Source: an uncultured Gemmatimonadaceae bacterium (lineage in GTDB: Bacteria > Gemmatimonadota > Gemmatimonadetes > Gemmatimonadales > Gemmatimonadaceae). From it: a stretch of DNA of 64,000 bases. Shown here piece by piece: positions 241-64,000 of this stretch. Position 1 is the first letter of the stretch. Each line of letters opens with the position of its first letter. A model generated the notes under the pieces. That model saw only the letters and a program-made list of their open reading frames with translations, had not been told where the DNA came from and searched no databases. The position numbers were made by a program, and so were the translations under genes. The stretch is from contig CAWHHI010000005.1 in NCBI GenBank assembly GCA_963829055.1, positions 32,001-96,000 of the forward strand, read 5' to 3'.

Positions 241-903
241 ATGCGAAGTCGCCCGCTCGACTGGCGCAATGCCGCCATAATCCTCGTCGCCACCTCCGCC
301 GCGTGCGCCGCTCCAGACCGCCCGACGGGTGTGGCGTCCACCGCCATGGACCACGCGACCATGGCAGTCGGCAACGACAACCCCAACTCGGCGGCGGGAG
401 ACGCGAAGGGATTCATCAATGGATGGATGGACGGCGAGACGGTCGATCTCCGCTACACTCGGCTCTACTTCTGCGCCGAGCCGCCGGAGAGTGCCGTCGC
501 CTCGAACTGCGAGGTTGGAGCAGCGGCCACCGTTGCACCGAGGTCGGGGCCGATCCCGAAGATCTATGCCCTGGCAGCAGCCGGCTTTCAGCCGGACCCC
601 GCGACGCTCCACTGCAAGGGCGGCACGCTCTGTCTCAATCACCCGCCCATGCTCGATCTGTCCAGGCTCGGGCTCCCGGCCAGTGTCGCGTCACCGCCGC
701 ACAGCCACATCGTGACGGACCGTCATGCCGGGTGGCACAACACGGTGAACATCCGCGTGACGAGTCTCGCGGTCTGGAACGAGATCGCCGCAGCGAAGAG
801 CCTAACGAAGGTGCGGGAGCTCCAGGCCGCGGGACGACTGGGCCCGGACATTCCGACGAACGTCTACTTCTTCCTCGAGGTACAGCAGGACAAGCCCGAG
901 TAG
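241..903 (+). CDS. Secreted/lipoprotein-like hypothetical protein, His/Cys-containing
   Basis: 220-aa ORF with AAGGAG RBS upstream, hydrophobic N-terminus ending SAAC, GC3-biased codons; motifs CLNHP and PHSHI. Confidence 0.8.
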   Translation: MRSRPLDWRNAAIILVATSAACAAPDRPTGVASTAMDHATMAVGNDNPNSAAGDAKGFINGWMDGETVDLRYTRLYFCAEPPESAVASNCEVGAAATVAPRSGPIPKIYALAAAGFQPDPATLHCKGGTLCLNHPPMLDLSRLGLPASVASPPHSHIVTDRHAGWHNTVNIRVTSLAVWNEIAAAKSLTKVRELQAAGRLGPDIPTNVYFFLEVQQDKPE

Positions 904-1600
904 AGATCGCAGTCGGGACGATGGGCTCGGAAACGGCGCCCGGCATCGCAGCGGTGCCGGGGGTCGTGGAGCGCCTAGCGCGCCTGATCAGGGCTAGGGG
1001 CAGCTCCGGCGAAGCTACCGCGTGTCGACCCCAGTCACCTGGAAGCCCCGCGATGATGCACATCCTCGCCGGCTCGGCGACGAACGACGAAGCGAAGACG
1101 ACCTATCGTCAGGGATGGTCGGAAGACGTTGGCGTCACGTCTGCCCACACGTTCTTGCGGCCCGACCGAACCTGCCGTCGCCCAACCAAACCCGATCGCG
1201 ACCCGTCTGCTCGTCCTCCTCCGGCGTGCTCGCTGCTCCCTGCCCTCGCGCTTGGCGTCGCGTCGAGGATCGGCGCCCAGACCGTTGCCCCGGCCGCGGC
1301 ATACTCGTTCGTTACCTGCGCGGGCGGCTCCACGCATCGATGCGGGTCGTAGCCTGCGAGGTGCGGCGTTCGACTGACCGAGCTGGCTGATGAGACGATC
1401 GTCTGCTCGATGTCGTCGCCTCGCTGCCCACAGGCATTAGCAGCTCTTCACCTCCCAACGGTTCGGCAACGGCCCAATGAGCCGACGCACCATTTCGCCG
1501 TAACCTCAAAATATTCCGCCTGTTGCGGCGATCGCTGCCGTAGCCCAATGTAGGCCCCGTCCGGATGAGTCCGGCCGGCGATCACACCCCAGGAACTCGA

Positions 1601-4206
1601 ATGCCCGAACAGCTCGGCAGGCTGCGTGAAGGGTTGGCAGGACGGTACGAGCTCGAACGCGAGCTCGGGCGCGGCGGCATGGCCACCGTCTACCGCGCGC
1701 GCGACACGCAACACGACCGCCCCGTCGCCCTCAAGGTCCTCCACAGCGAGCTTGCCGAGTCGCTGGGCGCCGAGCGGTTCCAGCGGGAGATCCGGGTGGC
1801 GGCGAGCCTCCAGCATCCGCACATCCTGAGCGTCCACGACTCGGGGAGCACCGACGGGCACCTGTGGTTCACCATGCCTTTCGTCGAGGGCGAGTCGCTC
1901 CGCGACCGGCTCACGCGCGAGCGGCAGCTGCCCGTCGCCGACGCGCTGCGCATCACGCGCGAGGTGGCGCTCGCGCTCGACTACGCGCACCGCCACGGCG
2001 TCGTCCATCGGGACATCAAGCCCGAGAACATCCTGCTCACCGACGGGCAGGCCCTCGTCGCCGACTTCGGGATCGCGCGAGCGCTGGGCAGCGCCGGCGA
2101 GAACCTCACGAGCACCGGGACGATCATCGGCACCCCGGCGTACATGAGTCCGGAGCAGGCCGCCGGTGACCTCGCCATTGACGGCCGCACCGACATCTAT
2201 TCGTTAGGCTGCGTTCTCTACGAGATGCTGGCCGGCGAGCCGCCGTTCTCGGCTCCGACGGCTCAGGCGCTGATCGCGCGCGTGATGACCGAGTCGCCGC
2301 GCCCGCTGCACACCGTGCGATCCACGATCTCCCGGCAGCTCTCCGGCGCGGTCGAGCAGGCGATGGCGAAGTCGCCCGCCGATCGTCCCGCAACCGCGGC
2401 GGACTTCGCGCGCCTGCTCGAGTCGACCGCCACCATGCCCGCGGCCGCGTACGCCGCAGCGCCCCGGCGCATGTCGCGGTGGATGGCGTTAGGCGCGGCG
2501 GTCGTCGTCGTGGGCATCATTGGCGGCGCGCTGGGCGTTCTGTGGTCGCGGCAACATGCCGGGCGGCAGCGGCGAGCGCAAGGTCGCCGTGCTCCCGTTC
2601 GAGAACGCCGGGAGCGCGGACGATGAATACTTCGCCGACGGCATGACCGACGAGGTGCGAAGCCGGCTCTCGACCATTCGCGGTCTCCGCGTCACCGCGC
2701 GCACCAGCAGCGCGCAGTACCGCCGCTCCAAGAAGACAGCGCGTCAGATCGGGCGCGAGCTCGAGGTGCAGTATCTCCTGCAGGGGACCGTGCGGTGGAG
2801 CAAGACGAACGGCGTGAACCGCGTGCGGGTCACGCCTGAGCTGATCGATGTCTCGAACGAGGAGAGCCGGTGGAGCGCGCCGTACGACACCGTGATGTCC
2901 GACGTGTTCGCGGTCCAGGCCAGCATTGCGGCGAAGGTGGCCGAAGCGCTGAACGTGGCGCTGGCCCCGCCGGACCAGGCGCAGATCGCCGCGCGCCCGA
3001 CATCGAGCCTCGACGCGTACGACGAGTTCCTGAAAGGCGAGCAGATCACGAGCTCGTTCGGCAACAACGACCCGCCGACCCTGCTCAAGGGGTTGGGCCA
3101 CTACGAGCGCGCGGTTGCACTCGACAGCACGTTCGCGCGTGCGTGGAGCGCGATCGCCAGGACGCACGCGAGTCTTTCGACCCTCAATCCAACCAGAGAG
3201 TCCGTCGAGCGTGCACGCGTGGCAGCGGAGCGAGCGCTGCAGCTTGCGCCCGACCGTCCCGAGGGGCGGTTGGCAATGGGGTCCTACCTGCTCAGCATCA
3301 AGCTGGATTACGAGGGGGCGCGCCAGCAGTACGTCGAGGGATTGGCACACGACCCGAACAACGCGGATCTCCTCGGCGCGCTCGCGGGCGTGGAAAGAAC
3401 CGTCGGGAAGTTCGACGATGCGCTGACACACCTCAAACAGGCGGCGCTGTTGGACCCGAGATCGGTATCCATGGCCCGACGACTGGCCCGTGCGTACCAC
3501 GACCTGCGACGCTTCAAGGAGGAGCTGCCGGCGTGGGATCGCGCGCTCGCACTGGCGCCGGACAACCTTCCGATCATTCAGGCGAAGGCCATTGGATTCC
3601 TGGCGGTCGGCCAGCTCGATAGCGTCCACGCGCTCGTCCACGCCAAGCTCGCGATCGTCGATACGACGGCGCTGCTCGTCGCGGTTCTCGATGTTCCAGG
3701 AGATGATGTGGACGCTCCCGCCGGAGCTCTGGCCGAAGATTCTGCCGCTCACGGTCAAGGACTTTTCGGGCGACAAGGGACACTGGGGACTCAAGGTCGG
3801 GCACACGTACCTGCTGCTCGGCGACACGGTCCGGGGCCGCATGTTCGGCGACTCTGCGCGGGCGGATTTCGAGGCTCGGCTCAGGGAGTTCCCGGACCGC
3901 GCTCAGCTCCACGAGCTCCTCGGCCGCGCTCTCGCGTTAGGCGGGCACCGGGCCGAAGCGATCGCGGAGGCCGAGCGGTCGCTCGCGCTGCGCGAGACCT
4001 CGCTGGACGTGGGCCTCCGCCCGTACGTGCACTTCCAGGTCGCGCGCATCCTCGTGCAGAGCGGCGAGTACGACAAGGCGCTGGATCTCATCGAGCCGCT
4101 GGTCACCACCTACGCGTCCGATGTCACGCCGGACTACCTCCGGCTGGATCCAACGTTCAAGCCGCTGTACGGGAACGCGCGATTCCGGCGGTTGATCGGC
4201 AAGTAA
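1601..4206 (+). CDS. Ser/Thr protein kinase with TM segment, TolB-like (VAVLPFEN) domain and TPR repeats; two frameshifts (~2540, ~3683)
   Basis: GRGGMATVY, VALKVL, HRDIKPEN, DFG, GTPAYMSPEQ in ORF 1565..2626; VAVLPFENAGSADDEYFADGMTDE and TPRs in ORF 2520; C-terminus LRLDPTFKPL in ORF 3490..4206. Confidence 0.9.
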
Positions 4207-4305
4207 GGCTGCGCAGGTGTGAACGCGCCGTCGAGTCCGACGTCCGCGCGCTGATCCCGAGTCTCCTGATGCCTCAACCGACGTAGTCGAAAGAGCTGAG
4301 GTCCG

Positions 4306-5169
4306 TCAGGCGGAAACGGTGGTTCGGAGCCCCGCGCGCTCGTCGATCGCCTCGCATTGGGTGAGTCGTCGCTCCGAGTCCGGGTCGTGGGACGGCAAAT
4401 AGACGAGGGGCCGCTCTGCCGCCAGCGAGAGGATTCGTGCGTGCGTCTCTTGTGTCACGCGCGGATCGGGACTCACGCCGTCGACTTTGCCGGCGAGCAG
4501 GAGTGATTGGTTGTAGCTCGTATCGCCGGCCAGGAAGAACGACACATCGCCGGACACGACGACGACCGAGACGTGGTGCGGCGTGTGGCCGGGTGTGGGC
4601 ACGACCACCACGTCGCCACGCTTCGTGAGCGACATCGATTCGTCGAATGGCCCGAGCGCTTGCGAGTCGAAGCGGATGAGCTCCGGCTGCCACCACTTCG
4701 GCCAACGATGTGGGAGGTAACCCTGCACTCGTCCGCCAACTCCGCCCGCGCGATCGAGCTCTCCACGCGCCACCCACACTCGGCTTCCCGTGATGTGCGC
4801 CAGACCGCCGGCATGGTCGGTGTGGAGATGGGTGAGCACGACGTGGCGAACATCTCTGGGTCCGATACCGAGCGCGCGAAGCTGCGGGCCGAGCTCCTCT
4901 TCGGGGTGAACGGAGAACTGCGCGGCGCGCCGGTAGAAGGGATGCCACCGCGGGTGGTATCCTCGCTCGTGCACGCGCGCGGTCTCGCCGGTGTCGACGA
5001 GGATGACACCCTCGTCGTGCTCGATCACCCAGACGTAGATCGGCAGCCACTCCGACCACTCCGGGTCGAACAGCATGTTCGACATTCGCCGGGCGCCGGT
5101 GCCGCGTGACTCCATCTGTGGTCGTCGGACCTTCACGAGTCCGGTGCTGATGGCGTGGATCGTCGTCAT
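4306..5169 (-). CDS. Metallo-beta-lactamase fold hydrolase, N-acyl-homoserine lactonase-like
   Basis: HLHTDHAGG (HxHxDH), LVDTG, TPGHTPHH, AGD and terminal PSHD motifs. Confidence 0.85.
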   Translation of the reverse strand: MTTIHAISTGLVKVRRPQMESRGTGARRMSNMLFDPEWSEWLPIYVWVIEHDEGVILVDTGETARVHERGYHPRWHPFYRRAAQFSVHPEEELGPQLRALGIGPRDVRHVVLTHLHTDHAGGLAHITGSRVWVARGELDRAGGVGGRVQGYLPHRWPKWWQPELIRFDSQALGPFDESMSLTKRGDVVVVPTPGHTPHHVSVVVVSGDVSFFLAGDTSYNQSLLLAGKVDGVSPDPRVTQETHARILSLAAERPLVYLPSHDPDSERRLTQCEAIDERAGLRTTVSA

Positions 5170-5416
5170 GTTCGGAATCTCCAATGTGTGCCAACTACGA
5201 CGCGCGAGAGGCGAGGCCCGGCCGGGCAACGTACCGTTCACGGTACGAATGTCTCGGAGGCGTCCGGGGATTCGGGTTGGCTATGTAAACGCAGGCCGGG
5301 CTGCAAAGCGGCCAGCGGCCTGACCGCCGAGTGGCTCGTTTGCGGGCTGGACTCCGCGTTACGGAGATGCGGGCGGTAAACCGCTCCCCGCGTTGACCAT
5401 CGTCTCCGAGGATCCC

Positions 5417-6755
5417 ATGTCCCCAATGTCGCCCGTGCGCCCTCGACGGCGCCTCCCCCTCGCGTTCGGCGTCCTCACCACGCTCACCGTCGCCTGCAGC
5501 GACCCGAACGCTCCGGTCGTGCCGCGCGTGGGTGGCGCAGCACATCCGGACTTCACCGCCGCCATACTCGTGACGAATACCAACGACGACGGGCCTGGCT
5601 CGCTTCGACAGACAATCGCCGACGCTCCCGACGGCGCGCTGATTCAGTTCGCACCCGAGATCGCCGGGCAGACGATCGTGGTGTCCGACGCGATCTCGAT
5701 CGATCAGTCGTTGACTGTCGAGGGGCCGATCCCGCAGGGCATCACGGTGAGCGGTGGTCTCAAACACTTCGTCTTTAGCGTGAACGGCAGCAGCGTGACG
5801 ATTCGGAACCTTTCGATCGTGAATGGGCGGGGTGACTACGGAGGGATTCACGGGGCGGGACGCCTGACGCTGGAGAACACACTCGTCGCGAACAACGAGG
5901 GCACGCTCAGACGGGGGCGGCATCGCATTCGACGGCGACCACCTCAGTCTGATCAACAGCACCGTGACCGGGAACGTGGGTGGCGGAGTCGTCGCTATTG
6001 CCAGCGGAGTCACGATCCGGAACACGACGATCACGGGAAATTCCGGGGGCGGCCTCGTCGCGAGCCACGCCGGTGTCGTGCTGCGGAACTCCATCATCGC
6101 CAACAACACCGACGATGGAAGCAGCCCGCCACGCACCAACTGCCTCATGCTCGAGGGAGCGAGCGTGACGTTCATCGGCCTCAACGTATCGAGCGATGCG
6201 AGCTGCGGAACGGACCCGGCCCTGCTCATCGCCGACCCGAAGCTCGGTCCGCTCGCGAACAATGGCGGCCCGACGAGGACACACGCGCTGCTGCTCGGCA
6301 GCCCCGCGATCGATGCGGGCTCGCTCTGCACGGAGACGATCGATCAGCGGTACGTCACCCGCGACAAGGGATTGTCGTGCGACCTCGGCGCCTTCGAATT
6401 CGAGAGCTTCGCGCCGCTCGGCCTCACGGTCGGACCTAACGTGGCGGCGAATCCAAAGACGGGGGCGGTGACCGTGAGCGGGACGGTCACGTGTGCCGTT
6501 CCGACGTCCGTCGCGCTGAACGTCGCGCTGAGTCAGACCCAGAAGGTCACGGGCCGCTTCTCCACCATCGTCCAGGCCGCGGCGACGACGAACGTCAACT
6601 GCACGGGAACCTCATCGTGGACGGCCGTGCTCACGCCGGCTTCGGGCAAGTTCGAAGTCGGGGAGGCGACGACCACGGCGAGCACGGCGACCGTCACGGG
6701 GGGCTTCCTGCCCGCCACGGTGGCCGCACCGGTCAAAGTGTTCACCGCGAAGTAG
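5417..6755 (+). CDS. Lipoprotein with beta-helix/choice-of-anchor Q-like domain; frameshift ~5905
   Basis: TVAC lipobox; VTNTNDDGPGSLRQ; DPKLGPLANNGGPTRTHALLLGSPAIDAG...DQR...CDLGAFE; joins ORFs 5393 and 5964. Confidence 0.8.
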
Positions 6756-6882
6756 GTTGCGCGCCGCCATGACCGCGGTCATGTTCGGTTCCCGCGCTCG
6801 CCGATCTCATCGGCCGCGCGGGAACCCCGGCGTTCATCCGCACCTGCCAACCACGCCGAGGGGCATCGGAAGACGTCCCGGG

Positions 6883-7467
6883 ATGGAGTCGGAGTGGATG
6901 GCGGACGAGCAGCTCCCCGCGACCGATCTGCTGTTGCGTGCCGGCGCCGGCGAGGCGGCCGCCGTGGCCAGCATGTTCCCGCTGGTCTATGAAGAGCTCC
7001 GCCGCCTCGCGCACCGACACCTGTCCCGGGAGCCGACCGGCCGCACGTTAGGCACGACCGAGCTCGTACACGAGGCGTACCTGCGCCTGATCGACCAGAC
7101 GCGCGTCCAGTGGACCGGCCGCGCGCACTTCATGGGCGTCGCCGCGACGGCCATGCGTCGCATTCTGGTGGATCGAGCGCGAGCCCGGCGAAGCCTCAAG
7201 CGCGGCGGGGCGCTCGCTCCCGTGTCTCTCGACGTACTCGACCTCGGTACCGACGAACGCGCGGACCTGCTCGTCGCGCTCGACGAGGCGCTCGACCGCC
7301 TCCGTGAGCTCGACGCGCGGCAGGCGCGCGTGGTCGAGTGCCGCTTCTTCGGCGGCATGACCGAGGAAGAAACGGCGGAGGCACTCGGCATTGGGCTTCG
7401 CACGGCCAAGCGGGATTGGGCGAAGGCGAAGAGCTGGCTTTTCCGCGAGATCTTCGACCAGGAATGA
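6883..7467 (+). CDS. ECF RNA polymerase sigma factor (TIGR02999-like, kinase-associated)
   Basis: PLVYEELRRLAH, TTELVHEAYLRL, AMRRILVD, VVECRFFGGMT, RDWAKAKSWL motifs; immediately upstream of a kinase gene. Confidence 0.9.
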   Translation: MESEWMADEQLPATDLLLRAGAGEAAAVASMFPLVYEELRRLAHRHLSREPTGRTLGTTELVHEAYLRLIDQTRVQWTGRAHFMGVAATAMRRILVDRARARRSLKRGGALAPVSLDVLDLGTDERADLLVALDEALDRLRELDARQARVVECRFFGGMTEEETAEALGIGLRTAKRDWAKAKSWLFREIFDQE

Positions 7468-7473
7468 CGTGAC

Positions 7474-10191
7474 GTGAGCCATCCCTCGCGCGAGCGCTTT
7501 CGGGAGATCGACGCGATCTTCGACGCCGCCCTCGACCTCGCACCTGACGAGCGCGACGCGTTCATCACGCAGCGCTGTGGCGATGACGTCGGCCTCCGCG
7601 CCGAAGTACGAGCACTCCTGGACGCGCATACCAGGTCGGGCGACTTCCTCGAGGCACCGGCGGTGCAGATCGGCGCGGCGCTGCTGGAAGAGCCCTCCAC
7701 CCCCGACCAGCCGGTGGCGCCCGTGCGCGCCGGCCCATTCCGCATCGTGCGCGAGATCGGTCGCGGCGGCATGGGCGTCGTGTACCTGGCGGCTCGCGCC
7801 GGAGCGGAGTTCGAGCAGCGCGTCGCCCTCAAGGTGATCCGACAGGCGAACCGAGGGGCGGACGTGGTCCGGCGCTTTCTCGAGGAACGCCGCATCCTCG
7901 CGCTGCTCGAGCATCCCGGCATCGCCCGCCTCATCGACGGCGGCGTGACGGACCAGGGGGACCCGTATTTCGCGATGGAGCTCGTCGACGGCGAACCGAT
8001 CGATACGTACTGCAACTCGCGGCAGCTGGCGATCGAGCAACGCCTCGACGTGTTCGGCGCGGTGTGCGACGCCGTGCAGTATGCCCACGAGCATCTCGTC
8101 ATCCATCGCGACCTCAAGCCCTCGAACATTCTCGTCCGCAGCGACGGGCAGCTCAAGCTGCTCGACTTCGGAATCGCGAAGCTGCTCGATCCGCTCCGCA
8201 GCGATGGCGGCCACGAGACGCAGACCGGGCTGATCGCGTTGACGCCGGAGTATGCCGCGCCGGAACAGGTCCGCGGCAAGCCGGTGAGCACCGCGACGGA
8301 CACGTATGCGTTAGGCGTGCTCCTCTACGTGCTGCTCGCCGGCCGGCGCCCCTACGACGTGCGGGGTCGAACACCGAGCGACGTGGAGCACATCGTCTGC
8401 GAGCTCGAGCCGCCGCGTCCATCGCTCGTGGCGCCGGAGAATGTACGTCGCCGGTTGGCCGGCGATCTCGATCTCATCGTGATGAAGGCGCTGCGCAAGG
8501 ATCCGGCACGCCGGTACCCATCGGCCGCGGCCCTCCACGACGACCTGCGGCGCTATCGCCGTGGGCTTCCCGTGCTCGCGCGACCGGACAGCGCGCGCTA
8601 CCGACTCACCAAGTTCGCGCGCCGACACCGAACCGGCGTCGCGGCAGCAACGGTGACGCTCGCCACGCTCATCGGCGCGACCGTGTTCTCCGCGACGCAG
8701 ATGCGTGAGGCAGAGCGGCAGCGCGACGCCGCGCTGCGCGAAGTCGAACGGCAGCAGGCGATGGTGCAGGTGCAGAACGTGCTCGCCGGCGATGCGCGCG
8801 ACTCGCTTGGCCGTCCGCTGTCCGCCGAGCGGCGAATCGGTCTCGCCGAACAGGTGCTGTCGCGTCAGTTTCGCGGTGAGCCGTGGCTCGTCACGGATGT
8901 TCTGCTCGGGCTCGCGTCCCGCCTCTACGACCTCGGTGAGCGGCGATCACAGCGAGCGATGCTGTCGCGTGCCCGCGGCGTCGCGCGCGCCGCGAACCTG
9001 CCGACCGAGATCGCGCTCGTGGATTGTATGCGCACGTCGAGCCTCGTGTACGACGACCAGCTCGACTCCGCTCGCGCAGATCTCGCGGAGGCCCAGGCGG
9101 CGCTCGCCCGGCCCGGCACGCGAACGGATCTCGCGAGCGCCATGTGTCTCGATGCGGAGGGTCGACTGCGTGAGGCCGAAGGCAACCCCGACTCCGCGGT
9201 CGCGCTGCTGCGGCGTGCGGTCGACCTCACGCGCACGGGCGGCGCGGGCGCCCTGCGGCTTCAAATGACCGTCGCGCTCGGAACCGCGCTGCGCTCGACC
9301 GGGCACGTGCGCGAGGCCAGCACGTACTATCGCCAAAGCGTCATCGATCTCGACTCGACAGGATATCGGGGGACCGACATCCTGCCTAACGTCGTCACGT
9401 TTCTCACGTCGGCGCTCAACGAGCTCGGAGAGATCGCGAGCATGGATTCGCTCGTTGCGGCGTCGATCGAGAACATGGCGGCAGTGCACGGTCAGCACGC
9501 GAGCGGACAGCTCAACTTTTTACGCGGACTGGCCAAGCTGCGTCTCGGCGAGCTGGATTCCGCCGAGGTCTGGATCGTGCGAGCCATGCGCGACACGACC
9601 GAGGGCGCGGGTGGTCTCGCCGCGTACCTTCCACCGGCGATCACGCAGCTGCGTCTCGAGCAGGGGCGTCTCGCCGAGGCGAGGACGAGTCTCGCCACAC
9701 TGCCGTCCGGTACGCTGGTTCGCCGTATCAATCGAGTGTGGTTCACGGCGCGGCTTCGTCATGCCGAAGGTGATACCAGGGGTGGCTCGAGCATGCTCGA
9801 GGACTCGCTGAGAGCGATCGCGGCGGAGGCACCGAGGACCACGGCGCCGCTGGCGCTGCCGTTCGTGACGGCAGCGGAGTGGCGACTCGAGGCCGGGGAT
9901 GCACGCGGTGCCGACTCGCTGGCACGGCTCGGCCGGACGGCAGGCGCGATCGACTCGATCGCCTTCGAGCGCAGTGGATACGTCGGACGCGCGGAGCTCG
10001 TGCGCGCTCGGGCGCTGGTTCGGTTGGGACAGACGCAGGAGGCACGACGTGCGGCAGAGCGTGCGCTCGTTGCCCTGACGAATGGCTTCGGCGCGGCCAA
10101 TCGGTGGACCCTCGAGGCCGGCGCTATGGCGCGCCTCGGCTCGCGTCAGTCCACGCCGGACACCTCGGGCCCGCCTGCGCCTGACCGCTAG
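7474..10191 (+). CDS. Membrane Ser/Thr protein kinase with TPR-like C-terminal region
   Basis: GRGGMGVVY, HRDLKPSN, DFGIAK, TPEYAAPEQ; TM segment after the kinase domain; 905 aa. Confidence 0.92.
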   Translation: MSHPSRERFREIDAIFDAALDLAPDERDAFITQRCGDDVGLRAEVRALLDAHTRSGDFLEAPAVQIGAALLEEPSTPDQPVAPVRAGPFRIVREIGRGGMGVVYLAARAGAEFEQRVALKVIRQANRGADVVRRFLEERRILALLEHPGIARLIDGGVTDQGDPYFAMELVDGEPIDTYCNSRQLAIEQRLDVFGAVCDAVQYAHEHLVIHRDLKPSNILVRSDGQLKLLDFGIAKLLDPLRSDGGHETQTGLIALTPEYAAPEQVRGKPVSTATDTYALGVLLYVLLAGRRPYDVRGRTPSDVEHIVCELEPPRPSLVAPENVRRRLAGDLDLIVMKALRKDPARRYPSAAALHDDLRRYRRGLPVLARPDSARYRLTKFARRHRTGVAAATVTLATLIGATVFSATQMREAERQRDAALREVERQQAMVQVQNVLAGDARDSLGRPLSAERRIGLAEQVLSRQFRGEPWLVTDVLLGLASRLYDLGERRSQRAMLSRARGVARAANLPTEIALVDCMRTSSLVYDDQLDSARADLAEAQAALARPGTRTDLASAMCLDAEGRLREAEGNPDSAVALLRRAVDLTRTGGAGALRLQMTVALGTALRSTGHVREASTYYRQSVIDLDSTGYRGTDILPNVVTFLTSALNELGEIASMDSLVAASIENMAAVHGQHASGQLNFLRGLAKLRLGELDSAEVWIVRAMRDTTEGAGGLAAYLPPAITQLRLEQGRLAEARTSLATLPSGTLVRRINRVWFTARLRHAEGDTRGGSSMLEDSLRAIAAEAPRTTAPLALPFVTAAEWRLEAGDARGADSLARLGRTAGAIDSIAFERSGYVGRAELVRARALVRLGQTQEARRAAERALVALTNGFGAANRWTLEAGAMARLGSRQSTPDTSGPPAPDR

Positions 10192-10289
10192 CGGGTGGGC
10201 CACTGATGTACTGTGTCATGTTTCGGCGCACGACGTCCTGCGGAGACGGCTCCGGCATTCGGGTGCGCGTATACGACGGGTGGCGCGGT

Positions 10290-10386
10290 GACATTCCGCT
10301 CACCCGCCAACCAGCACCCGGGTCCAGGTCCCGCGCTCGTTCGACCGGAGTTTCTCATCGAGGTCGAAGCGCTGGCGTTTCGCTGA
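10290..10386 (+). pseudogene. C-terminal remnant of a RidA/YjgF-family protein
   Basis: With a one-base shift reads PPTSTRVQV/PALVRPEFLIEVEALAFR*, the typical RidA C-terminus; no intact N-terminus. Confidence 0.6.
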
Positions 10387-10455
10387 TAGCTTCCAGTCAC
10401 GACCATCAGTGAGCTACGCGCGCACCGCGTTTCCCCTCCGCCGGACCGCCCCGCC

Positions 10456-47179: not shown

Positions 47180-47197
47180 GACGGCGTCACGACCACG

Positions 47198-51755: not shown

Positions 51756-51756
51756 G

Positions 51757-55700: not shown

Positions 55701-55916
55701 GGACGGCGATTCGAAACCGACGCGACCGAGCTCGGATGGTCGATGCATCGGCTCGCGGAGCTGTACGAGTCGCGGCGCGAAACGACGAAGGTCGCGGAGC
55801 AGTACACGGCGCTCGTCGCGCTCTGGAACGGCGCCGACCGGGAGCTGCGTCCGGTGATCGAGGACATTCGGAAGCGCATCGATCGAGCAGGCCAGGTCAC
55901 CGGGCGACGCGACTGA
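52788..55916 (+). CDS. Membrane Ser/Thr protein kinase with TolB-like domain and TPR repeats
   Basis: GRGAMGTVY, HRDIKPAN, DFG, TPEYASPEQ; TM; TTSSVSALRSY; TPRs; CPMC near the C-terminus. Confidence 0.92.
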   Translation: MKVEHVVTDDRWARLTDLYHSAVAMTAEERASFLADACDGDASLRAGVERLVAAHERANQPARAEEPVAVAAMPVAGASLGAIAEPASLVHQFGPYRAVRELGRGAMGTVYLAERADGHDGQVAIKVIERAADTDVLQDRLRAERKILASLDHPNVGRLLDGGVSDEGFLYFVMEYIDGEPLDEYADAYRLSVPDRLKLFLQITSAVAQAHRLRIIHRDIKPANVLVTPGGVPKLLDFGITNVLDPDGDGQTSSDLRVLTPEYASPEQIEGRRATAASDVYSLGVLLYELLTGQSPYRLRTREPLEVSQAVRTIDPERPSKAARREMEAAGNSEKLGRRLNGDLDTIVLKALRKEPAQRYQSVEQLAADVRLHLDGRPVATQADNTGNRNGSFLHRNRKAVSVVMAAAFVALALGGGFIAFRPKTERVAPPVALGALTLHDRIVVADLADSTGDAVLATALSDAFRKDLTQSPFVQVLPDREAGSMREIAGREGAKAIVTGSISKAGESYEITARLVSTEKGDVLATVREAATDSTAVIGAVDRLSNSLRRHMGESSASIQASPRLELVTTSSVSALRSYSEGVQAIRDGNRTRGLQLLEKAVELDTGFASAYRVLGATYGDMAETGRSTSALEHAIANQPRLSFYDRYHTIATHASTVLNDNITAIDAYQHVLERYPNDVPALTGLAHVYALRREHAAQESLLVRALAVDSTNPRVSIALVATRLNRGDFEGARRELDRVEKRSATLSSAHLAEIYLAAAQQDWASAERWARSRMALPSTGPLDSLDGLETLAGIAMAQGRLAEAERHSRAALALAARMRSPGRYLSSAVRLASIDLRYRNAPTRARATVTAALARYPLGKLQESDRPYDLLARFFVAAGNTARARDLILHADQTKLGRQREVSADRRWTLGVISLAEGHTPEATAQLRVATEEHECPMCALPDLARAYEAVGKPDSTIAVYERYLREPWGRRFETDATELGWSMHRLAELYESRRETTKVAEQYTALVALWNGADRELRPVIEDIRKRIDRAGQVTGRRD

Positions 55917-55954
55917 TACTTGCCGTCCCGGGGTTCGTCAGACTCGGGACCTTG

Positions 55955-57181
55955 TCAGGCGGACGACGTCTCATCGAGCGGTAGAAGATCGCCACCCTCC
56001 TGCGGTCGCGACTCCCCGCTTCGGTCGAGCGCGAACCGCGCACTGAGCGGGCCGGCAATCTCGAAGACGATCACCGCCCCCAGCACGACGGTCGTCACCG
56101 TGGGCGCGATATCAGGAAATCGCTCCCGTGTCACGAGCACGAGCCCGACGGCGAGCCCCGCCTGCGCGAAGATCGACATTCCGAGCAGCCGCTGCACCGG
56201 CTCGGGGAAGCGCGTGCGCTTCGCGGCGAGCCGCGCGCCCGCGAGCTTTCCGGTAGCGCGGCAGAGTACGTAGACCAGGCCCAGCAAGCCTAACGACGGC
56301 AGCAGCGACAGGTCGAGATCGGCGCCAGCCAGCACGAAGAAGATCACGTACAGCGGCGGGTCGGTGCGGGACAGCGCGCCGAACAGCCGTCGACTCTTCC
56401 CCGACAGGTTCGCCATCGTCGCGCCGACCGCGAGACTGGCGACCAGCGGCGAGAGGCCCAGCACCGTCGACACACCCACCGTGAGCAGCACGCATCCGAT
56501 GAGCAGGATCAGGATCTCACCGGACTCGACGACCTGCGATGCCCACGACGCGAGCAGCAATCCGACGAGGAATCCGAGCGCCGCGGAGCCGACGAGCTGC
56601 CAGAACAGCGGAAACAGCGCGCGTCCGATCTCGCCCACGCTTACCCCGCCAGTCGCGGCCAGCGCGTTGACGTCGAGCGTCGCGGCCGCAAGGCTGAACG
56701 CGACGAGCGCGAAGATGTTGTTCAACCCGATCACGCCCGTCAGCGCTTCCGTGAACGGGCCAGCGGAGTTGTTCTCGCGAATCACCATCAGCGTCGACGC
56801 CGCTCCCGTCTCGACCGCGATGGCACCTAACAACAACGCGACGGGCCAGGGTTGGCCGATGATCAGCATCCCGACGAACACGAGCGCGGCTGCCAGTCCG
56901 GACTCGGCGAGCGTCAGCGTCACGAGGCGTCGGCCGATAGCGCGCACGCGCCCGAGCTCGAACACGGCGCCGATCGAGAACAGGATGAGCCCGAGGCCAA
57001 CCTCGCTGAAGATGTGCAGCGCCTCGAGGTTCTCATGGGTCACCCAGCCGAGCGCCGACGGCCCGACGATCATTCCGGCGACGAGGTAGCCCGTCACCTC
57101 GGGGACTCGCGCGAATTTGACCAGGTGGCCGACCAGCAGCGCGAACAGCAGGATGAGGCCGAGCGATGCGAGCTCGTTCAT
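55955..57181 (-). CDS. Cation:proton antiporter (CPA superfamily)
   Basis: RVPEVTGYLVAGMIVGPS, IFFVLAGA, QAGLAVGL, FEIAGP; highly hydrophobic 408 aa. Confidence 0.88.
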   Translation of the reverse strand: MNELASLGLILLFALLVGHLVKFARVPEVTGYLVAGMIVGPSALGWVTHENLEALHIFSEVGLGLILFSIGAVFELGRVRAIGRRLVTLTLAESGLAAALVFVGMLIIGQPWPVALLLGAIAVETGAASTLMVIRENNSAGPFTEALTGVIGLNNIFALVAFSLAAATLDVNALAATGGVSVGEIGRALFPLFWQLVGSAALGFLVGLLLASWASQVVESGEILILLIGCVLLTVGVSTVLGLSPLVASLAVGATMANLSGKSRRLFGALSRTDPPLYVIFFVLAGADLDLSLLPSLGLLGLVYVLCRATGKLAGARLAAKRTRFPEPVQRLLGMSIFAQAGLAVGLVLVTRERFPDIAPTVTTVVLGAVIVFEIAGPLSARFALDRSGESRPQEGGDLLPLDETSSA

Positions 57182-58371
57182 CGTGGGAGCAGCACGCCAC
57201 GCTGCGCGGAATCGCGTTCGAACACCACGAGCGTCGCGCCCTCACGTCGTTCGAGCAGCCGACGCGCGGTCCGCGGATCACGGACCGCGCGTCCGCCAAC
57301 CTCCAGCAATCGATCACCACCGCGGAGCCCGGCCCTGCCAGCTGGTGACTCCGCGCGAACGGCATCGATGATCACGCCCTCGGGTGGCGAGCGTTCCGCA
57401 AGTCGAATCCCGGCGTCGGCCGACCGAGCCGAGTCGGTTGGTGTTCCGACCACCGCGTCGCGACGCAGGATTCGAACTCGGGCGTCCGACTTACCGCGCC
57501 GGCGTACCACGTCGTGCTCGGCAGGCGGGTCGCCCACGAGGACCGCGAGGTCATCGGGCGCCGCGACTCGCTGGTCGTCGACGCCGAGAATCACATCGCC
57601 TGGGCGCAGTGCCGAAGCTGCGGGAGCATCCTGCCTGACGGTGACGACGAGCACACCCGAGTCGCTGGCGAAATACGCGCGTGCGAGCGAGTCGAGCGGC
57701 GACACGGCGAAGCCGTAGCCGTCCCAGACCCGCGCCGCGAGCGATGCCGTGGTAGCCAACAGTCGCGTGGCCTCGGCCATTGGGATCGCCGCCATCTGGC
57801 CGGCGCAGCGAACGACCATTCCGACCAGCCGTCCATCGAGATTGAACAACCCAGCGCCGGCGAAGCTGTCGTGCAGCGCCACGCCGAGGACCAACTCCGC
57901 CAGCGACTCGTTGCCGCACCGCCTAACGGCCCTCCCGCCGAACAGGCCGGCTGACGACACGACCCTGCCCTCCGGCGTGCGCCCGACCACGAGCAGCCAA
58001 TCGTTAGGTGCCGGGTCGGCAATGGCGGGCGGCGCGGCGCGTCCGGTGTCGCGGGCCGTCGCGGCGACGGAGATGACGGGACGACCCGCGAGCGTCGTCA
58101 CGAGCGTGTCCCCCTGACCAAACCGGAATCCGGCGGCACCCACGGTCGCGATGTAGACCACCCGCGGCGCGACGGCGGCGATGCGTGTCGCGAGAAAGTC
58201 CGAAACACGTTCGAGCTGTCCGTCCTGCGAGAGCTGCTGCAATGCAGACGCTTCGCTCGGCGGCGCTGGTGCTGACGGCTGCGCGCGCTGGAGGCGGCCG
58301 CGGATGAAAATGCCGATGGCCAACACGAGAGCGGCGCCGAGCGCCAGCGACGCGAGATACTTTCGGTTCAT
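57178..58371 (-). CDS. Membrane-anchored PDZ-domain protein with degenerate trypsin-like (HtrA-like) region
   Basis: N-terminal TM; AGAGLFNLDGRLVGM; two PDZ-like motifs (APAASALRPGDVILGVD, SPAGRAGLRGGDRLLEVG). Confidence 0.75.
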   Translation of the reverse strand: MNRKYLASLALGAALVLAIGIFIRGRLQRAQPSAPAPPSEASALQQLSQDGQLERVSDFLATRIAAVAPRVVYIATVGAAGFRFGQGDTLVTTLAGRPVISVAATARDTGRAAPPAIADPAPNDWLLVVGRTPEGRVVSSAGLFGGRAVRRCGNESLAELVLGVALHDSFAGAGLFNLDGRLVGMVVRCAGQMAAIPMAEATRLLATTASLAARVWDGYGFAVSPLDSLARAYFASDSGVLVVTVRQDAPAASALRPGDVILGVDDQRVAAPDDLAVLVGDPPAEHDVVRRRGKSDARVRILRRDAVVGTPTDSARSADAGIRLAERSPPEGVIIDAVRAESPAGRAGLRGGDRLLEVGGRAVRDPRTARRLLERREGATLVVFERDSAQRGVLLPR

Positions 58372-58384
58372 GCGTGGCGATGGC

Positions 58385-59425
58385 TCACTGAAAAAAGTCG
58401 GTGGGCGCCCGTGGCGCATGAATCGCGCCGGCGGTCAGATGAGCGATCAACGTAATCAGGTACGCGAGATAGGCGCCGAACAACAGCGCGCCTTCGCCGC
58501 GCGAGAGCCGCGCGCCCGATCGCATGAGCGGCAACAGCAGCAGCGACGTGCCGATCATCCACCACATGTCGCTCCGCGCCAGCGCGGGCGCCACGTGCAT
58601 CGGCGCGATCACAGCGGTCACGCCGAGAATCCCGAGGATGTTGAAGATGTTCGAGCCGATCATATTCGCGACCGCCACGTCGGTCCGCTTGCGGAACGCC
58701 GCCACCAGCGATGTCGCCAGCTCGGGCGCGCCTGTGCCACCCGCGACGATGGTCAGGCCGATCACGCGCTCGCTCAGGCCCGCGATGCGCGCGAGCGTCA
58801 CGGCACCGTCGACCAGCAACCGGCCGCCGGCGATCAGCCCAACGATGCCTAACGCGAGCACGGCGAGGGTGACCGCTATCGACGCAGGGCGACCCACTGG
58901 CGTACCTGGACGGTCAATGTCACGCGCCTCAGTCTGCGCGGCGAACTGTCGGGCCTCCGCCGCGCCGACATCGCGCCGCGCGATGCGCACCGTGTACGCG
59001 ATGAACAGCACCATCGCGATGAGCAGCACACCGCCTTCGACTCGATCGATCGTGCCGCCCCTCGCGACGACCAGACACACGAGACTCGCCGCGAACATGA
59101 CCGGCCACTCGCGCCGGACGGCAGAACCGTGAACCGGCAGCGGGATGATCATGGCCGTGAGCCCGAGCGTCGCGGCGATGTTGAAGATGTTCGAGCCCAC
59201 GACGTTCGCGACGGCGAGGTCTGGCTCGCCCCGCAGCGCGGCGAGCAGACTCACCACGAGCTCGGGGAGCGACGTGCCGATGGCGACGACCGTCAGGCCA
59301 ATCACGGCGGGGCTCACGCCCGCGATCTCGGCGATCGTTGTCGCCGCGCGCACGAGCGCCTCGCCACCGCCGACGAGCAGCACGAGTCCACCCAGGATGA
59401 GGCCCAGCGGAAGTAGGATTTCCAT
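58385..59425 (-). CDS. yrbG: Ca2+/Na+ antiporter (CaCA family, YrbG-like)
   Basis: Two alpha repeats: GTSLPEL..NVVGSNIFN and GTGAPEL..NMIGSNIFN. Confidence 0.9.
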   Translation of the reverse strand: MEILLPLGLILGGLVLLVGGGEALVRAATTIAEIAGVSPAVIGLTVVAIGTSLPELVVSLLAALRGEPDLAVANVVGSNIFNIAATLGLTAMIIPLPVHGSAVRREWPVMFAASLVCLVVARGGTIDRVEGGVLLIAMVLFIAYTVRIARRDVGAAEARQFAAQTEARDIDRPGTPVGRPASIAVTLAVLALGIVGLIAGGRLLVDGAVTLARIAGLSERVIGLTIVAGGTGAPELATSLVAAFRKRTDVAVANMIGSNIFNILGILGVTAVIAPMHVAPALARSDMWWMIGTSLLLLPLMRSGARLSRGEGALLFGAYLAYLITLIAHLTAGAIHAPRAPTDFFQ

Positions 59426-60908
59426 ATGCGGTGTTCGAACGCCCGCGTCCGCGGGCGACGACGTGTGAGGCGCTAGTCTGGCGGTCGCGGCGGGCTTTGG
59501 CAGAGGCGCCATTCCCCGTCGCAGCAAGAGACTGCCGGCTATGCCGGCGACAGCCGACGCGGCGAGGATGCCGAGCTTCGCGGCGTCGAGGAACTCCGCG
59601 CGTCCGGAGCCCTCCGGAAACGCGAGCCCGGCGATGAACAGCGCCATCGTGAACCCGATGCCGCCCAGCACCGCGACGCCGGCGAGCGCCATCCATGTCG
59701 AGCCGCGCGGCAGGGACGCGATGCCGAACCGCACTGCGAGCCACGCGAATCCGGCGATGCCTAACGGCTTCCCGAGCAACAGCCCGAGCGCGGCACCGAG
59801 CGCAACGGGGCTAGTGGCGCCGGCGCCGAGGGCGGCGGCGTCGAGCGTGACGCCGGCGTTCGCGAGCGCGAACAGCGGCATGATCCCGAACGCCACCACC
59901 CCGTGCAGCGCGTGCTCGAGGCGGATGAGCGGCGGCTGCGCCTGCTGGCACAGCGTCTCGATCTCTTCGAGCACCGTATGGTGCTCGACGTTCGAGAGAA
60001 CGGTCGTGTTCGGATCCGTTTCCGTCACCGTCGCCGCCGCATCGAAATGGTCGAGCGCGCGCCTGGCACTGCTGAGGAACTCCCGCTCGTTCACCCGCGT
60101 GCGAACCGGAATCGTGAACGCGAGCAGCACGCCGGCCACAGTCGCGTGAATACCGGACAGGAGCACGGTGCCCCACAGCGCGAGTCCGATCGCGCCATAC
60201 GTCCACGGGCGACGCGCGCCGGCGCGATTGACGACCGACCGCGAACAGCAGGAGCGCGCCCGCGGCGGCCAGCGGGCCCCACGCGACGCCTGACGAGTAG
60301 AAGATCGCGATCACGAGCACCGCGCCGATGTCATCCACGATCGCCAGCGCGGCGAGGAACACTTTGAGTCCCGTCGGGACACGATCACCGAGCAGCGCGA
60401 GCACGCCGAGCGCGAACGCGATGTCCGTGGCCATGGGCACGCCCCACCCAGCCGCGCCGGGGCCGCCACGGTTCACGAGCGCGTAGATCGCCGCCGGCAC
60501 GACCATCCCGCCGAGCGCCGCGATCATCGGCAACGACGCCGTTCTCAGCGACGCGAGCTCACCGGCGATGATCTCGCGCTTGATCTCCAACCCGACCAGG
60601 AAGAAAAACACGGCCATCAGGCCGTCGTTGATCAGATGGTGAAGGGTCGTTCGGAACGACGCTCCCCCGAACGTGCCGCCGACGGGCAGTTCCCACAGAT
60701 GATGGTAGCTCTCCGCCCACGGCGAGTTCGCCCAGCCGAGCGCGATCGCCGTTGCCAGCAGCAGAACCACACCACCCGACGACTGTGCGTGCGTGAATCG
60801 AAGAAACGGAGCGAGCACGCGCTCGATGAGCGGCGCCTCCGACGTCGACGCTCCGCCGAGGTCATCACTTACCGGTATCGGCCTGGTGGGGACGGACTTG
60901 CTGGTCAT
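59426..60908 (-). CDS. nhaA: Na+/H+ antiporter NhaA; frameshift ~60235; no in-frame stop before the CaCA gene
   Basis: [59 protein letters not shown]. Confidence 0.92.
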
Positions 60909-61084
60909 CGACTTCGGTAGAGGACGCGACGCGCTGTCAGCGTTGCACGGCGACAGGCTCGCCAGCGGTAATGCGGAATTCGTCTCGCCGGTTCCGTGCC
61001 CGGGAGTCGTCGGTCGTGTCCTGACAGGCTGTACGCTCCCCACCGAAGCTCGCGATCTCGATGCGCTCGCGGTAGATGTCCCGC

Positions 61085-62260
61085 TTAGGCGCCGTTGAAC
61101 GACGTCGCGAGAACGCCGGCGACGCCGGCGGTGGCGATGACCAGCGGCTCGGGAATTTTTCGAGTCCGAAGCAATATCAGCAGCGTGACGCTGGCGATCA
61201 TCGCTGTCGTCAGGTCGACCACCGCTCGACGCCCCAACACGACCGCCGCTCCGGCAATCGCACCGGTGGCCGCCGCGGTCACGCCGTCCACGAACGCCCG
61301 CACCCGCCGGTCTGCCTTGAGCCGCTCATAACGCGGCGCGAGTACCAGCGTGATCACGTACACGGGCGCGAACACGCCCATGGCCGCCGCGGTGGCACCT
61401 GACGCGCCCGCGACCAGGTAGCCGATGAACGCGACAGTGATCACCACCGGCCCCGGCGTGATCAGCGCGACGGCCACGGCGTCGAGAAACTGTCGCTCGG
61501 TGAGCCAGTGATGCTGCTGCACCACGCCGCCATGAAGAAACGGCACGATCGCCAGCCCACTCCCGAACACGAACAAGCCGGCGGACGCGAAGTAGATGAA
61601 TATCGCTCCGATCATCACGAGCGACGTACCGCCCGCTCCCTCGAGGGCCGCGACGAGCCAGGTGGGCACGTGAGCCGTGCCGACGACTGGACCGACCGTC
61701 GCCACCCACCGCCCGGGCAGGCCCGAGCTCGTCCGTGCCATGACGGACACCACTCCGCATAACGCGAATACCCAGACGACCTCCGACTCGGTCCAGGCCG
61801 TCACGAGCGCGCTGGCGGCGAACAATACCCACATCAGGCGATCGCTGCCTAACGTCGTCCGGGCGAGCTTGACGGCGCTGCGCGCGATGATCGCGATTAC
61901 GGCCGCGCCGATTCCGTAGAACGCGCCCTGGAGCCAGGGTATACCGCCCAGCCGCTGGTAGAGCGCGGCGAGCACGAGCACCATCGCGAACGACGGCGCC
62001 ACGAACGCAATGCCGGCGACCGTCGCACCCCGCGCTCCGCGGCACAGCCATCCGAGGTAGATCGCGAGCTGGGCCGCGAGCGGTCCCGGCGCGAGCTGGG
62101 AGAATGCGAGACCGTCGCTGAGCTCCTGGCGCGTCACCCAGCGGCGGCGGTCCACGAACTCGTGCTCCATGTAACCCACCAGCGCGATCGGCCCGCCAAA
62201 GCCAGTGGTGCCGAGCCAGAGGAAAAACCGGAGCAGGTCGCGCGAGGACGGCCGTGTCAC
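61085..62260 (-). CDS. chrA: Chromate efflux transporter
   Basis: [35 protein letters not shown]. Confidence 0.93.
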
Positions 62261-63222
62261 CTGGACAGTAAGGCGTACAGGTCATCGAACAGCTGATACC
62301 CGCGCTCGAGCCGAGCGGCGTCGTCGGGGTTCGATGCGGCGATGCCGGCGATGACCCGCTCGATACCGGCGGCGTCCTCTCGGGCGAATTTGCCATCCTT
62401 GAGATCGATGTCGTGCACTACTTCCGCGATGGAGCGCAGTGCGCCGTCATCCATCGCGAATCGCTCGAGCAATGTCTCGAACGTGCACCGCTCGCCCTCG
62501 TGCGTGAACTCGCCTTCGAACATGTCGAAGCGCAGCTCGCCCTTTGACGGACGATAGCCGTCGTCCGCGACGAACTTGAATCGAGCGGCAGGATCGATGA
62601 AACGATGGATGAGCCAGGCGCTCGCCATGCGGTCGACGAAGACGTCGGCGCGCGTGACCCACGTCCGGCTTCGATACCCAGAGCGATCGGCGATGCGCGC
62701 ACTGGTGGACGCCGCCACGGGCCTCAGCTCCGCCTCGGCGATGCCTAACGCCTCCTCGGCCATCCCACGCTCGGGGGCAGCAAAGAAATCGAGCGCGGCA
62801 ACGGCCGCGAACCGCTTCTGGAGCCTGGCGAGATCGTCGTCGGGGCGAGCGGGGCGTGACGCTGCGTCGCGGCGCCGGATCGCGGCCCAGAGCTCGCGCG
62901 CAGCCGCCGCGATCTCGGCGTAATCCGCGTTGCGAGCGCTCCGGAACATGTGCCGCAGCTGATCGGAGGTGAGGCCGTCGACGAAATCCGCTCGGCAGAT
63001 CGATGCGTCGCCGCCGCCGTCGATGATCTCCGTGCGGATCCACTGGAAGTCCTCGTACGCCTGTGCGACGTCCGGCAGGACGTACACGGAATTCTTCACT
63101 GGTACAGCGCCCACGCGCTGCAGGCGCCGCCCGATCTTGACGCGCAGGTAGTCCGGCTTGGGCGGGATCTGATGGATGAGCAGGAGCCACTGCGTGGCGG
63201 CGGCGTCAGCGGGCTTGCTCAC
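62257..63222 (-). CDS. chrB: Chromate resistance protein ChrB
   Basis: WLLLIHQIPPKPDYLRVKI, WVTR, VDRMASAWLI, FTHEGERCTFE, VHDIDLKD; GTGA overlaps at both ends. Confidence 0.9.
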   Translation of the reverse strand: MSKPADAAATQWLLLIHQIPPKPDYLRVKIGRRLQRVGAVPVKNSVYVLPDVAQAYEDFQWIRTEIIDGGGDASICRADFVDGLTSDQLRHMFRSARNADYAEIAAAARELWAAIRRRDAASRPARPDDDLARLQKRFAAVAALDFFAAPERGMAEEALGIAEAELRPVAASTSARIADRSGYRSRTWVTRADVFVDRMASAWLIHRFIDPAARFKFVADDGYRPSKGELRFDMFEGEFTHEGERCTFETLLERFAMDDGALRSIAEVVHDIDLKDGKFAREDAAGIERVIAGIAASNPDDAARLERGYQLFDDLYALLSR

Positions 63223-64000
63223 GGGGCGATGCCTAACGCCAGCGCGCCGACCGGCACCGAGGGACCTGCGAGGTCGACGGCGAAGCCTGCACCCGCGGCG
63301 AGGGCTCGCTCGTACACGAGTGCCGCGACCGCTACGTCCTGCAGCGCGGTGCCTGTGCTGTCGAAGATGATGACCTCGTCGTCCGACTGACGGCCAACGG
63401 TCCGCCCGGACACCACGTCCGCTAACTCGCCCCGTACATCGCTCGTGCGCATGACACCCGCATCGAGCGCATGGTGGAGATCGCCGATCGCGGCGCACTG
63501 CTCGACGATGTCGGCGACGACAACGCTCGCGGCCATGAGCTCCGGCTCGATCTCGTGCTTCTCCGGGTTGTCCGCGCCGACGGCCGCGACGAACGCGCCG
63601 CGCCTGACGTGCGCGCGTCCGAGGAACCATTGGCGGGACGACGTGCACGTCACCCAGACGTCGGTGGCGGAGGGAACGTGACCGAGGTCGGCCACGGCGT
63701 CGATCGGGATCTCGAGCTCCGCGCTCATGGCATGCGCGAATCGCTCCACCCGCTCACGGTCGATGTCGTAGGCGAAGACGTGACTCACGTGCCTCACGCA
63801 CGCGAGCGCCCGCAACTGGTGAGCGGCCTGCTCACCGCAGCCGCATAACGCGACGACACTCGCGTCCACACGCGCGAGGTACCGTGCGGCGACGGCCGTC
63901 GCGGCCGCGGTGCGGACACTCGTGATCTCGGCGGAATCGAGCACGGCGAGGACGCGCCCGTCGGTGGCGTCGAACAGCGCGATGACACCCTGAATGGTTG
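63219..64000 (-). CDS. Ornithine cyclodeaminase/mu-crystallin family protein (5' end outside window)
   Basis: ITSVRTAAA, GCGEQA, AVGAD, GDL, FDSTGTALQD. Confidence 0.92.
   Translation of the reverse strand, partial: TIQGVIALFDATDGRVLAVLDSAEITSVRTAAATAVAARYLARVDASVVALCGCGEQAAHQLRALACVRHVSHVFAYDIDRERVERFAHAMSAELEIPIDAVADLGHVPSATDVWVTCTSSRQWFLGRAHVRRGAFVAAVGADNPEKHEIEPELMAASVVVADIVEQCAAIGDLHHALDAGVMRTSDVRGELADVVSGRTVGRQSDDEVIIFDSTGTALQDVAVAALVYERALAAGAGFAVDLAGPSVPVGALALGIAP

Follow-up and report, generated by a model that had tools for sequence, protein, structure and literature searches.

A hyper-abundant, non-palindromic octamer in Gemmatimonadales and Chthoniobacterales resembles DNA uptake sequences by genomic signature

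Short words that recur thousands of times in a bacterial genome are known from several systems, and the purpose of such hyper-abundant words is in part still debated. DNA uptake sequences (DUS) and uptake signal sequences (USS) are short, non-palindromic and equally frequent in both orientations; they are spaced more evenly than random, lie in several reading frames and are scarce in foreign DNA. Their receptors are ComP and, by prediction, ComN. HIP1 (GCGATCGC) of cyanobacteria is an octamer found in all permitted frames and kept as DNA, its function being among those debated, and it contains the methylated site of a resident methyltransferase. Chi and the FtsK orienting polar sequences (KOPS) are over-represented non-palindromic octamers within genes. 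Sequence-specific DNA uptake is described only for Pasteurellaceae and Neisseriaceae in the literature covered. Here, we describe CGTTAGGC (reverse complement GCCTAACG), an octamer of the same scale in two soil lineages, which we followed from a 64,000-nucleotide stretch (the window; positions 32,001 to 96,000 of contig CAWHHI010000005.1) of an uncultured Gemmatimonadaceae genome, GCA_963829055.1. By its genomic signature this word resembles DUS and USS. It is likely the binding site of a sequence-specific protein that reads duplex DNA, and we tentatively favor the view that it serves as a tag akin to an uptake sequence and is bound in duplex form. Searches of the literature by the exact word, or by the taxa with uptake terms, returned no description of it, although one may exist in closed supplements or in subscription journals.

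The window contains 45 exact copies, 17 as CGTTAGGC and 28 as GCCTAACG, by direct count on both strands (Table 1); 100 dinucleotide-shuffled versions contain 1.19 copies on average and at most 4. The smallest distance between any two copies is 191 bp, and 17 additional near-copies keep a GTTAGG/CCTAAC core. Thirty-eight exact copies fall fully within the 41 listed open reading frames (ORFs), where they occupy four frames ([ATSP]LG, 17 copies; xPN[AVDEG], 10; xVRx, 6; [RGSC]LT, 5); one more supplies the TAA stop of a LysR gene, and six lie outside the listed ORFs. The genes that hold copies are ordinary ones, including kinases, peptidases, glycosyltransferases, and antiporters. A first-pass annotation of this DNA had given the same two counts at the same positions, about 15 or more near-copies and a mostly coding location in several frames, and an exact recount agrees on each point; its GC content of about 70% is corrected to 67.4%.

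Across the source genome (7.78 Mb; G000 in our numbering, in which G, C, and L denote genomes, contigs, and loci), the word occurs 5,004 times, at 0.64 copies/kb and on all 20 contigs. It is the top-ranked 8-mer against Markov models of orders 1 to 3 (38×, 49×, and 19×); models of higher order absorb the word itself. Called genes hold 3,287 copies, compared with 136 to 178 in five within-gene synonymous shuffles (∼20×), and this genic share is a floor because gene calling reached 75% of the genome. The enrichment that had been proposed from a single window thus extends beyond one contig and persists under a codon-aware null. Nearly half of all TTA codons (1,312 of 2,832; 46%) sit inside the word, as do 26% of TAA stops (231 of 891) and 197 of 1,848 TAG stops, and 58% of the xPN[AVDEG] slots genome-wide (912 of 1,564) carry it. 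The suggestion that the word uses rare codons, under a constraint on DNA rather than on protein, is borne out by this share of TTA codons, by the excess over synonymous shuffles, and by the occurrence of the word in every permitted reading frame. Encoded tripeptides are more frequent than their reverses (PNA, 638/377; PND, 284/145; ALG, 2,820/1,802); six of them (PNA, PNV, PND, PNE, PNG, and ALG) exceed their reverses by 1.5 to 2.0×, whereas PLG and GLT are not enriched. The boundary of the word is sharp at eight bases, with G at positions 2 and 7 the strictest. Genome-wide, CGTTAGGT, CGTTAGGG, TGTTAGGC, and CGTTATGC act as weaker forms that obey the spacing rule described below; CGTCAGGC and CGTTCGGC do not act in this way in the source genome. 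Density is thinner in genes with low third-position GC content (GC3; 0.39 versus 0.73/kb), and the use of synonymous slots, that is, of places where the word can be written without changing the protein, climbs with GC3.

That the word is a by-product of methylation or mismatch repair, a codon effect, or a base-calling artifact is an explanation that we consider scarcely credible. Frameshifted kinase, NhaA, rpoB, and comEA genes do show that the assembly contains sequencing error. The ∼20-fold excess over synonymous shuffles speaks against a codon effect, however, and many independent assemblies carry the word, including fragmented assemblies of relatives and finished plasmids, while three foreign-looking segments (31 to 50 kb) of the source assembly lack it, so that an artifact of base calling is very unlikely. 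The two megaplasmids of cultured Gemmatirosa kalamazoonensis KBS708 carry 701 and 778 copies. The methylome motifs of this strain are RGATCY, ATGCAC, and CCAGN7TCA (PMC3974934), none of which lies in the word, which argues against a methylation by-product other than one of m5C. A HIP1-type explanation is rejected: the word is not a palindrome and is not among these methylated motifs. The word-free, foreign-looking DNA of the source genome (C6:5440-55037, C11:1-46789, C6:591808-623330, and C19:1-10600) likely reflects chimeric joins or contamination, and proteins of C19:1-10600 are 57 to 72% identical to Chthoniobacterales proteins; the word could act as a binning check.

The signal had been proposed to be non-polar, and a test of strand skew relative to the origin and terminus agrees. 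The source genome has 2,547 forward and 2,457 reverse copies, 2,587 of 4,982 pairs of neighbors lie on one strand, and in blocks whose replichore is fixed by KOPS and GC skew, the leading strand has 1,539 copies and the lagging strand 1,435 (51.7% leading); intergenic copies divide 376 to 375. In the same genome, the KOPS GGGNAGGG shows a strong polarity that reverses at C16:557-573 kb, the region containing dif (AGTTTACATAA-TACATA-TTATAAGTATA, at C16:560790, unrelated to the word), and the word does not flip. Because the word lacks replichore polarity where KOPS are polar, both a KOPS role and a Chi-like role are rejected; for Chi, the equal exclusion of neighbors in both orientations, described next, adds to the lack of leading-strand skew.

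Copies avoid each other at short range. Pair correlation rises from 0.21 below 60 bp to 0.38 at 100 to 150 bp and 0.72 at 200 to 250 bp, reaching ∼1 past 500 bp, and gaps of 10 to 100 bp occur at 0.23 of expectation, versus a mean of 1.10 for 25 control 8-mers. Synonymous slots less than 50 bp from another copy are used in 21 of 623 cases (3%), compared with 588 of 1,923 (∼30%) at 700 to 1,000 bp. When 14,428 slots were fitted, the effect decayed smoothly with a range of 100 to 150 bp and a gain of 3.2 log-odds, and same-strand and opposite-strand neighbors suppressed slot use equally; a hard cutoff and a fixed fragment length fit worse. Since spacing decays smoothly and ignores orientation, we infer a locally saturating, direction-blind force. 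A site-by-site mutation bias, or any other by-product that acts independently at each site, would not space copies apart. When a 20-kb region was aligned with five congeners, 21 of 52 site-genome comparisons were identical at ∼77% DNA identity, versus 15 to 17% for any 8-mer, the genomes being related and the counts therefore not independent; 4 of 11 aligned sites were kept in at least four of the five congeners, and the word was gained and lost by base substitutions.

The word had first been framed as a motif of a single lineage, a view that the dense Chthoniobacterales genomes, equally rich in it, overturn. The source RecA is 81 to 90% identical to those of seven Gemmatimonadales/Gemmatimonadaceae records in a scan of 1/64 of the collection, which assigns the source genome to this group. 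All six congeners carry the word at 0.35 to 0.68/kb, and G014 reaches 1.25/kb. Among 301 Gemmatimonadota genomes, 13 reach 0.1/kb, every one in Gemmatimonadales, and none of the 102 outside that order exceeds 70 copies (unpublished genomes G013, G084, G123, G202, G463, and G484 enter denominators only as low-count rows). Rich and poor genomes are close kin, with rich ones scattered over a 30-row RpoB tree: in one genus, G239 and G296 have ∼950 copies/Mb and G292 has 13/Mb, and the RpoB sisters G130 and G137 have 116 and 4. Two three-copy patterns scanned over 185,579 species, a search that detects dense genomes only, returned 34 and 35 loci, of which 16 and 18 were in Gemmatimonadota, 18 and 17 in Chthoniobacterales/Verrucomicrobiae, and none in other groups. 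Four Verrucomicrobiota genomes with dense loci have 2,512 to 3,510 copies each, and of 161 Chthoniobacterales genomes, 5 exceed 0.4/kb and 11 lie at 0.07 to 0.26/kb. There the word is the 9-mer TCGTTAGGC, with T at −1 in 88% of copies; it is non-polar and depleted at short range, and the close-pair deficit is repeated in 1.98 Mb of G322. In a ComEC tree of 50 loci, 20 fall in a single clade at 0.62 to 1.80/kb.

Sister Chthoniobacterales carry a second hyper-abundant non-palindromic word, AAGATCGACA, which occurs 1,415 to 2,673 times in each of three among the five genomes tested; one locus carries both it and the CGTTAGGC-type word. The genomes with AAGATCGACA (G494 to G496; loci L683, L688, L708, and L679) are 2.1 to 2.5 Mb in size. 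We do not call AAGATCGACA a dialect of the same system because its spacing may depend on strand. It is not enriched in 201 Gemmatimonadales, CCAAGGGCG is not hyper-abundant, and samples of 40 to 80 kb from the word-poor Gemmatimonadaceae G094, G129, and G292 contain no substitute hyper-abundant word.

We favor the uptake reading because of the scale of the word, its symmetry, its frames, the enrichment of its tripeptides, its even spacing, its absence from three foreign-looking segments, a set of competence genes, and the behavior of paired USS as one. The source genome encodes PilM-Q-, PilB/T/C-, pilin-, ComEA-, ComEC-, DprA-, ComM-, and ComF-like genes (comEA is frameshifted in the assembly), part of these names being assumptions drawn from familiar motifs. 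DUS and USS likewise raise encoded tripeptides over their reverses (PMC2817400), and uptake by H. influenzae does not increase when another USS lies within 100 bp (PMC7811141). Capture of fragments with the word, and their recombination into the chromosome, would be favored, so that the word would accumulate as DUS and USS do. The favored step may be uptake by a type IV pilus/ComEA/ComEC route, and a putative protein reader may find its duplex site by sliding, in which case a second site within ∼150 bp would add little, since sliding would bring the reader to one or the other.

Several observations weigh against this reading. In addition to the different sequence and the patchiness of the word within genera, inverted terminator pairs, which DUS and USS often form (PMC2397512 and PMC2817400), are not found: only 3 or 4 opposite-strand gaps under 40 bp occur among 4,982. 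The strong close-pair deficit differs from H. influenzae, where 23% of USS lie within 100 bp of another (PMC7811141). DUS are enriched in the core genome (PMC2397512); in contrast, gene clusters for ribosomal proteins, division, and respiration are thinly supplied with the word, with zero copies in most of the listed ribosomal-protein genes, and the word is dense in phage-like DNA, where seven viral or phage-like records carry 0.43 to 1.8 copies/kb, at host level or higher. ComEC and ComEA are present in both word-poor genomes tested, G292 and G094, so that of the suggested correlation with competence genes the presence of the machinery stands, whereas its restriction to word-rich genomes does not. 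No receptor was found for the word, and no pilin globular domain is common to the source genome and 1.98 of the 3.94 Mb of G322. The possible strand dependence of AAGATCGACA spacing weighs the same way (among 87 gaps in G495, pairs under 200 bp are 0 same-strand and 5 opposite-strand), and a purpose in recognizing kin is harder to uphold when two phyla use one word. The identity of the word across phyla might mean that its specificity was transferred from one soil phylum to the other or had two origins; that a reader moved between two unrelated soil phyla and wrote this one word into their genomes, plasmids, and phages seems to us a conceivable but improbable history.

The seven viral records come from a search directed at the word itself, whose 280 loci mostly contained only the queried pair; two of the records have a provirus classification, and head genes occur in one. 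G487 holds 26 copies in 28.5 kb. A small-ORF phage-like contig (L618, G489) has 31 copies in 17 kb (1.8/kb), 22 of them on one strand, which exceeds any host genome average seen, and an AT-rich viral contig (L469/L591) contains a tandem array of ∼108-bp units with CGTTAGGC in each.

The word might instead be the site of a cytoplasmic chromosome protein, such as a nucleoid organizer or loading factor, with copies under weak selection and a second copy within ∼150 bp redundant. We regard this as rather unlikely, yet it fits the orientation-free exclusion at the 100- to 150-bp scale, the absence of terminator pairs, and the presence of the word on chromosome, megaplasmids, and phage-like DNA alike, and HIP1 has been proposed to act so (PMC5861425). 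Copies show no helical phasing, however, and a 5-kb autocorrelation on three contigs, a simple test weaker than the published method, gave no clear 10- to 90-kb period, which is also a difference from HIP1. Gain and loss between close relatives would be odd for a structural need, and SWIB, one candidate for a reader, is rejected because 63 of 74 genomes encode it whether or not they carry the word.

Candidate reader families were tested with one query each over hand-picked rich and poor genomes (ComEC and ComEA in five genomes each), and none of IntI, topoisomerase IB (TopIB), TIGR03916, SWIB, ComEC, and ComEA separates rich from poor. These results bear on a further alternative, that a non-directional recombination, repair, or topoisomerase factor inside the cell favors word alleles in chromosomes, plasmids, and phages. 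Such an intracellular bias would suit the density of the phage-like records and the rise of slot use with GC3, and TopIB is present in 11 of 11 word-rich Gemmatimonadales and in 12 of 12 rich or intermediate Chthoniobacterales. TopIB is correlated with the word rather than matched to it one-to-one, however: among word-poor genomes it also occurs in 10 of 22 and 5 of 15 (15 of 37 together), and it is missing from 9 of 14 intermediate Gemmatimonadales. With the Chi-like polar form excluded, and the radical-SAM family TIGR03916 rejected because only 3 of 12 word-bearing Chthoniobacterales carry it, we judge this bias unlikely. XerC/D-dif is rejected as a reader system on the sequence of dif. An all-against-all comparison of proteins of the source genome and G322 gave 684 blast-matched frames and weaker matches; judged from sequence starts, the matches listed between the called genes of the source genome (75% of its length) and 1.98 of the 3.94 Mb of G322 include no obvious common sequence-specific binder. 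The source genome has a TIGR03916 radical-SAM gene at C11:689293-692639, 63% identical to its G322 counterpart, beside a gene that we take to resemble its uracil-DNA-glycosylase partner, and in L266 (G322:C2 ∼1,205,100-1,206,130) a ComEA-type HhH domain is fused to what is presumably a staphylococcal-nuclease-like domain.

The word also resembles part of an integron recombination site. The core site R′ of attC has the consensus GTTRRRY, and all eight letters of the word form the R′ end seen most often in the cassette arrays that we examined. Of 45 attC-like sites in G025 and G027 arrays, which were chosen for holding the word, 36 have CGTTAGGC as their R′ end, and cassette arrays of viral contigs show the same end; such a match is not easily dismissed. 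An R box bound by an IntI-like protein mobile between phyla would explain the identical eight letters, and the source genome has a divergent IntI-like gene. Copies in the source genome, in contrast, are single and intragenic, without paired R″/L boxes; a loose attC scan gave 11 hits, some of them one site scored on both strands, versus 5,004 copies. In genes that end in GCC-TAA-C, no paired core lies upstream (16 sense versus 17 antisense, n = 255), which rules out an origin of the copies as cassette relics. IntI is present in 8 of 11 rich, 10 of 14 intermediate, and 5 of 9 poor Gemmatimonadales and in 16 of 19 versus 12 of 21 Chthoniobacterales, with no co-distribution with the word over 57 and 74 genomes. 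Published genomic targets of the integrase have only a GWT consensus (10.1101/2022.09.11.507474). As copies are unpaired, IntI is untracked, and the integrase targets only GWT, we keep the integron explanation as a minor, very unlikely rival. The IntI-like gene (L005, C20:208011-208985) lies just above the TIGR02249 cutoff, with altered catalytic motifs and no adjoining cassette array; its closest relatives are in G003, G001, and word-poor G292. Long cassette arrays with closely related attC sites occur in word-poor Gemmatimonadales (L001 to L004; G027:C95, G027:C80, and G025:C3). IMG/VR contigs L420, L454/L492/L575, L433/L562, L432, L456/L457/L577, and L481 contain same-strand attC-like arrays ending CGTTAGGC every 200 to 700 bp, which are cassette arrays on viral or miscalled viral DNA.

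If one reader is shared, the word would extend uptake-type signals beyond Proteobacteria for the first time and would be the first of them common to two phyla; Gemmatimonadaceae and Chthoniobacterales would be mutually preferred DNA donors, and the target of the reader would equal the integron core site. Because the word is present in cultured KBS708, its function is directly testable. Related genomes that differ in word density, available as pairs in both phyla, provide a strong filter for the reader, and the 100- to 150-bp rule is a quantitative prediction. An uptake tag may also aid genetic work on these rarely cultured groups.

Table 1. Copies of the word and of its near-forms in the 64,000-nucleotide window (positions on the forward strand)
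Feature	Position	Strand
17 exact CGTTAGGC; starts 2202, 2487, 3935, 7046, 8309, 19327, 19543, 20231, 27773, 43632, 45375, 48502, 51132, 53023, 53894, 54085, 55519	2202..55526	+
28 exact copies, read GCCTAACG on +; starts 800, 9384, 11359, 11833, 16821, 17407, 17803, 22218, 22508, 26821, 30436, 31256, 33233, 34701, 35942, 36319, 43077, 44854, 46093, 47213, 49373, 56288, 57921, 58847, 59759, 61847, 62743, 63231	800..63238	-
Copy as TCG-TTA-GGC (Ser-Leu-Gly), Ser/Thr kinase gene; most frequent frame, imposes the rare TTA codon	2202..2209	+
Copy as CGC-GTT-AGG-CGG (Arg-Val-Arg-Arg), TPR region	3935..3942	+
Copy as xxG-CCT-AAC-Gxx (Leu-Pro-Asn-Val), kinase-TPR gene	9384..9391	-
Copy giving the LysR gene its TAA stop (GCC-TAA-CG)	22218..22225	-
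Copy as CGC-CTA-ACG (Arg-Leu-Thr), prolyl oligopeptidase gene	43077..43084	-
17 GTTAGG-core near-copies: CGTTAGGT 7, CGTTAGGG 5, TGTTAGGC 3, GGTTAGGC 1, TGTTAGGT 1	6435..63850	either
4 CGTTATGC copies	44590, 50261, 61757, 63843	either

Two further features of this DNA were observed. Apparent frameshifts, probably assembly errors, split genes at 1565-4286 (kinase/TPR) and 58385-61043 (NhaA) of the window and in rpoB on C19 and comEA on C12 of the source genome. The window also contains a RES/Xre toxin-antitoxin pair at 26266-27465 on the reverse strand.

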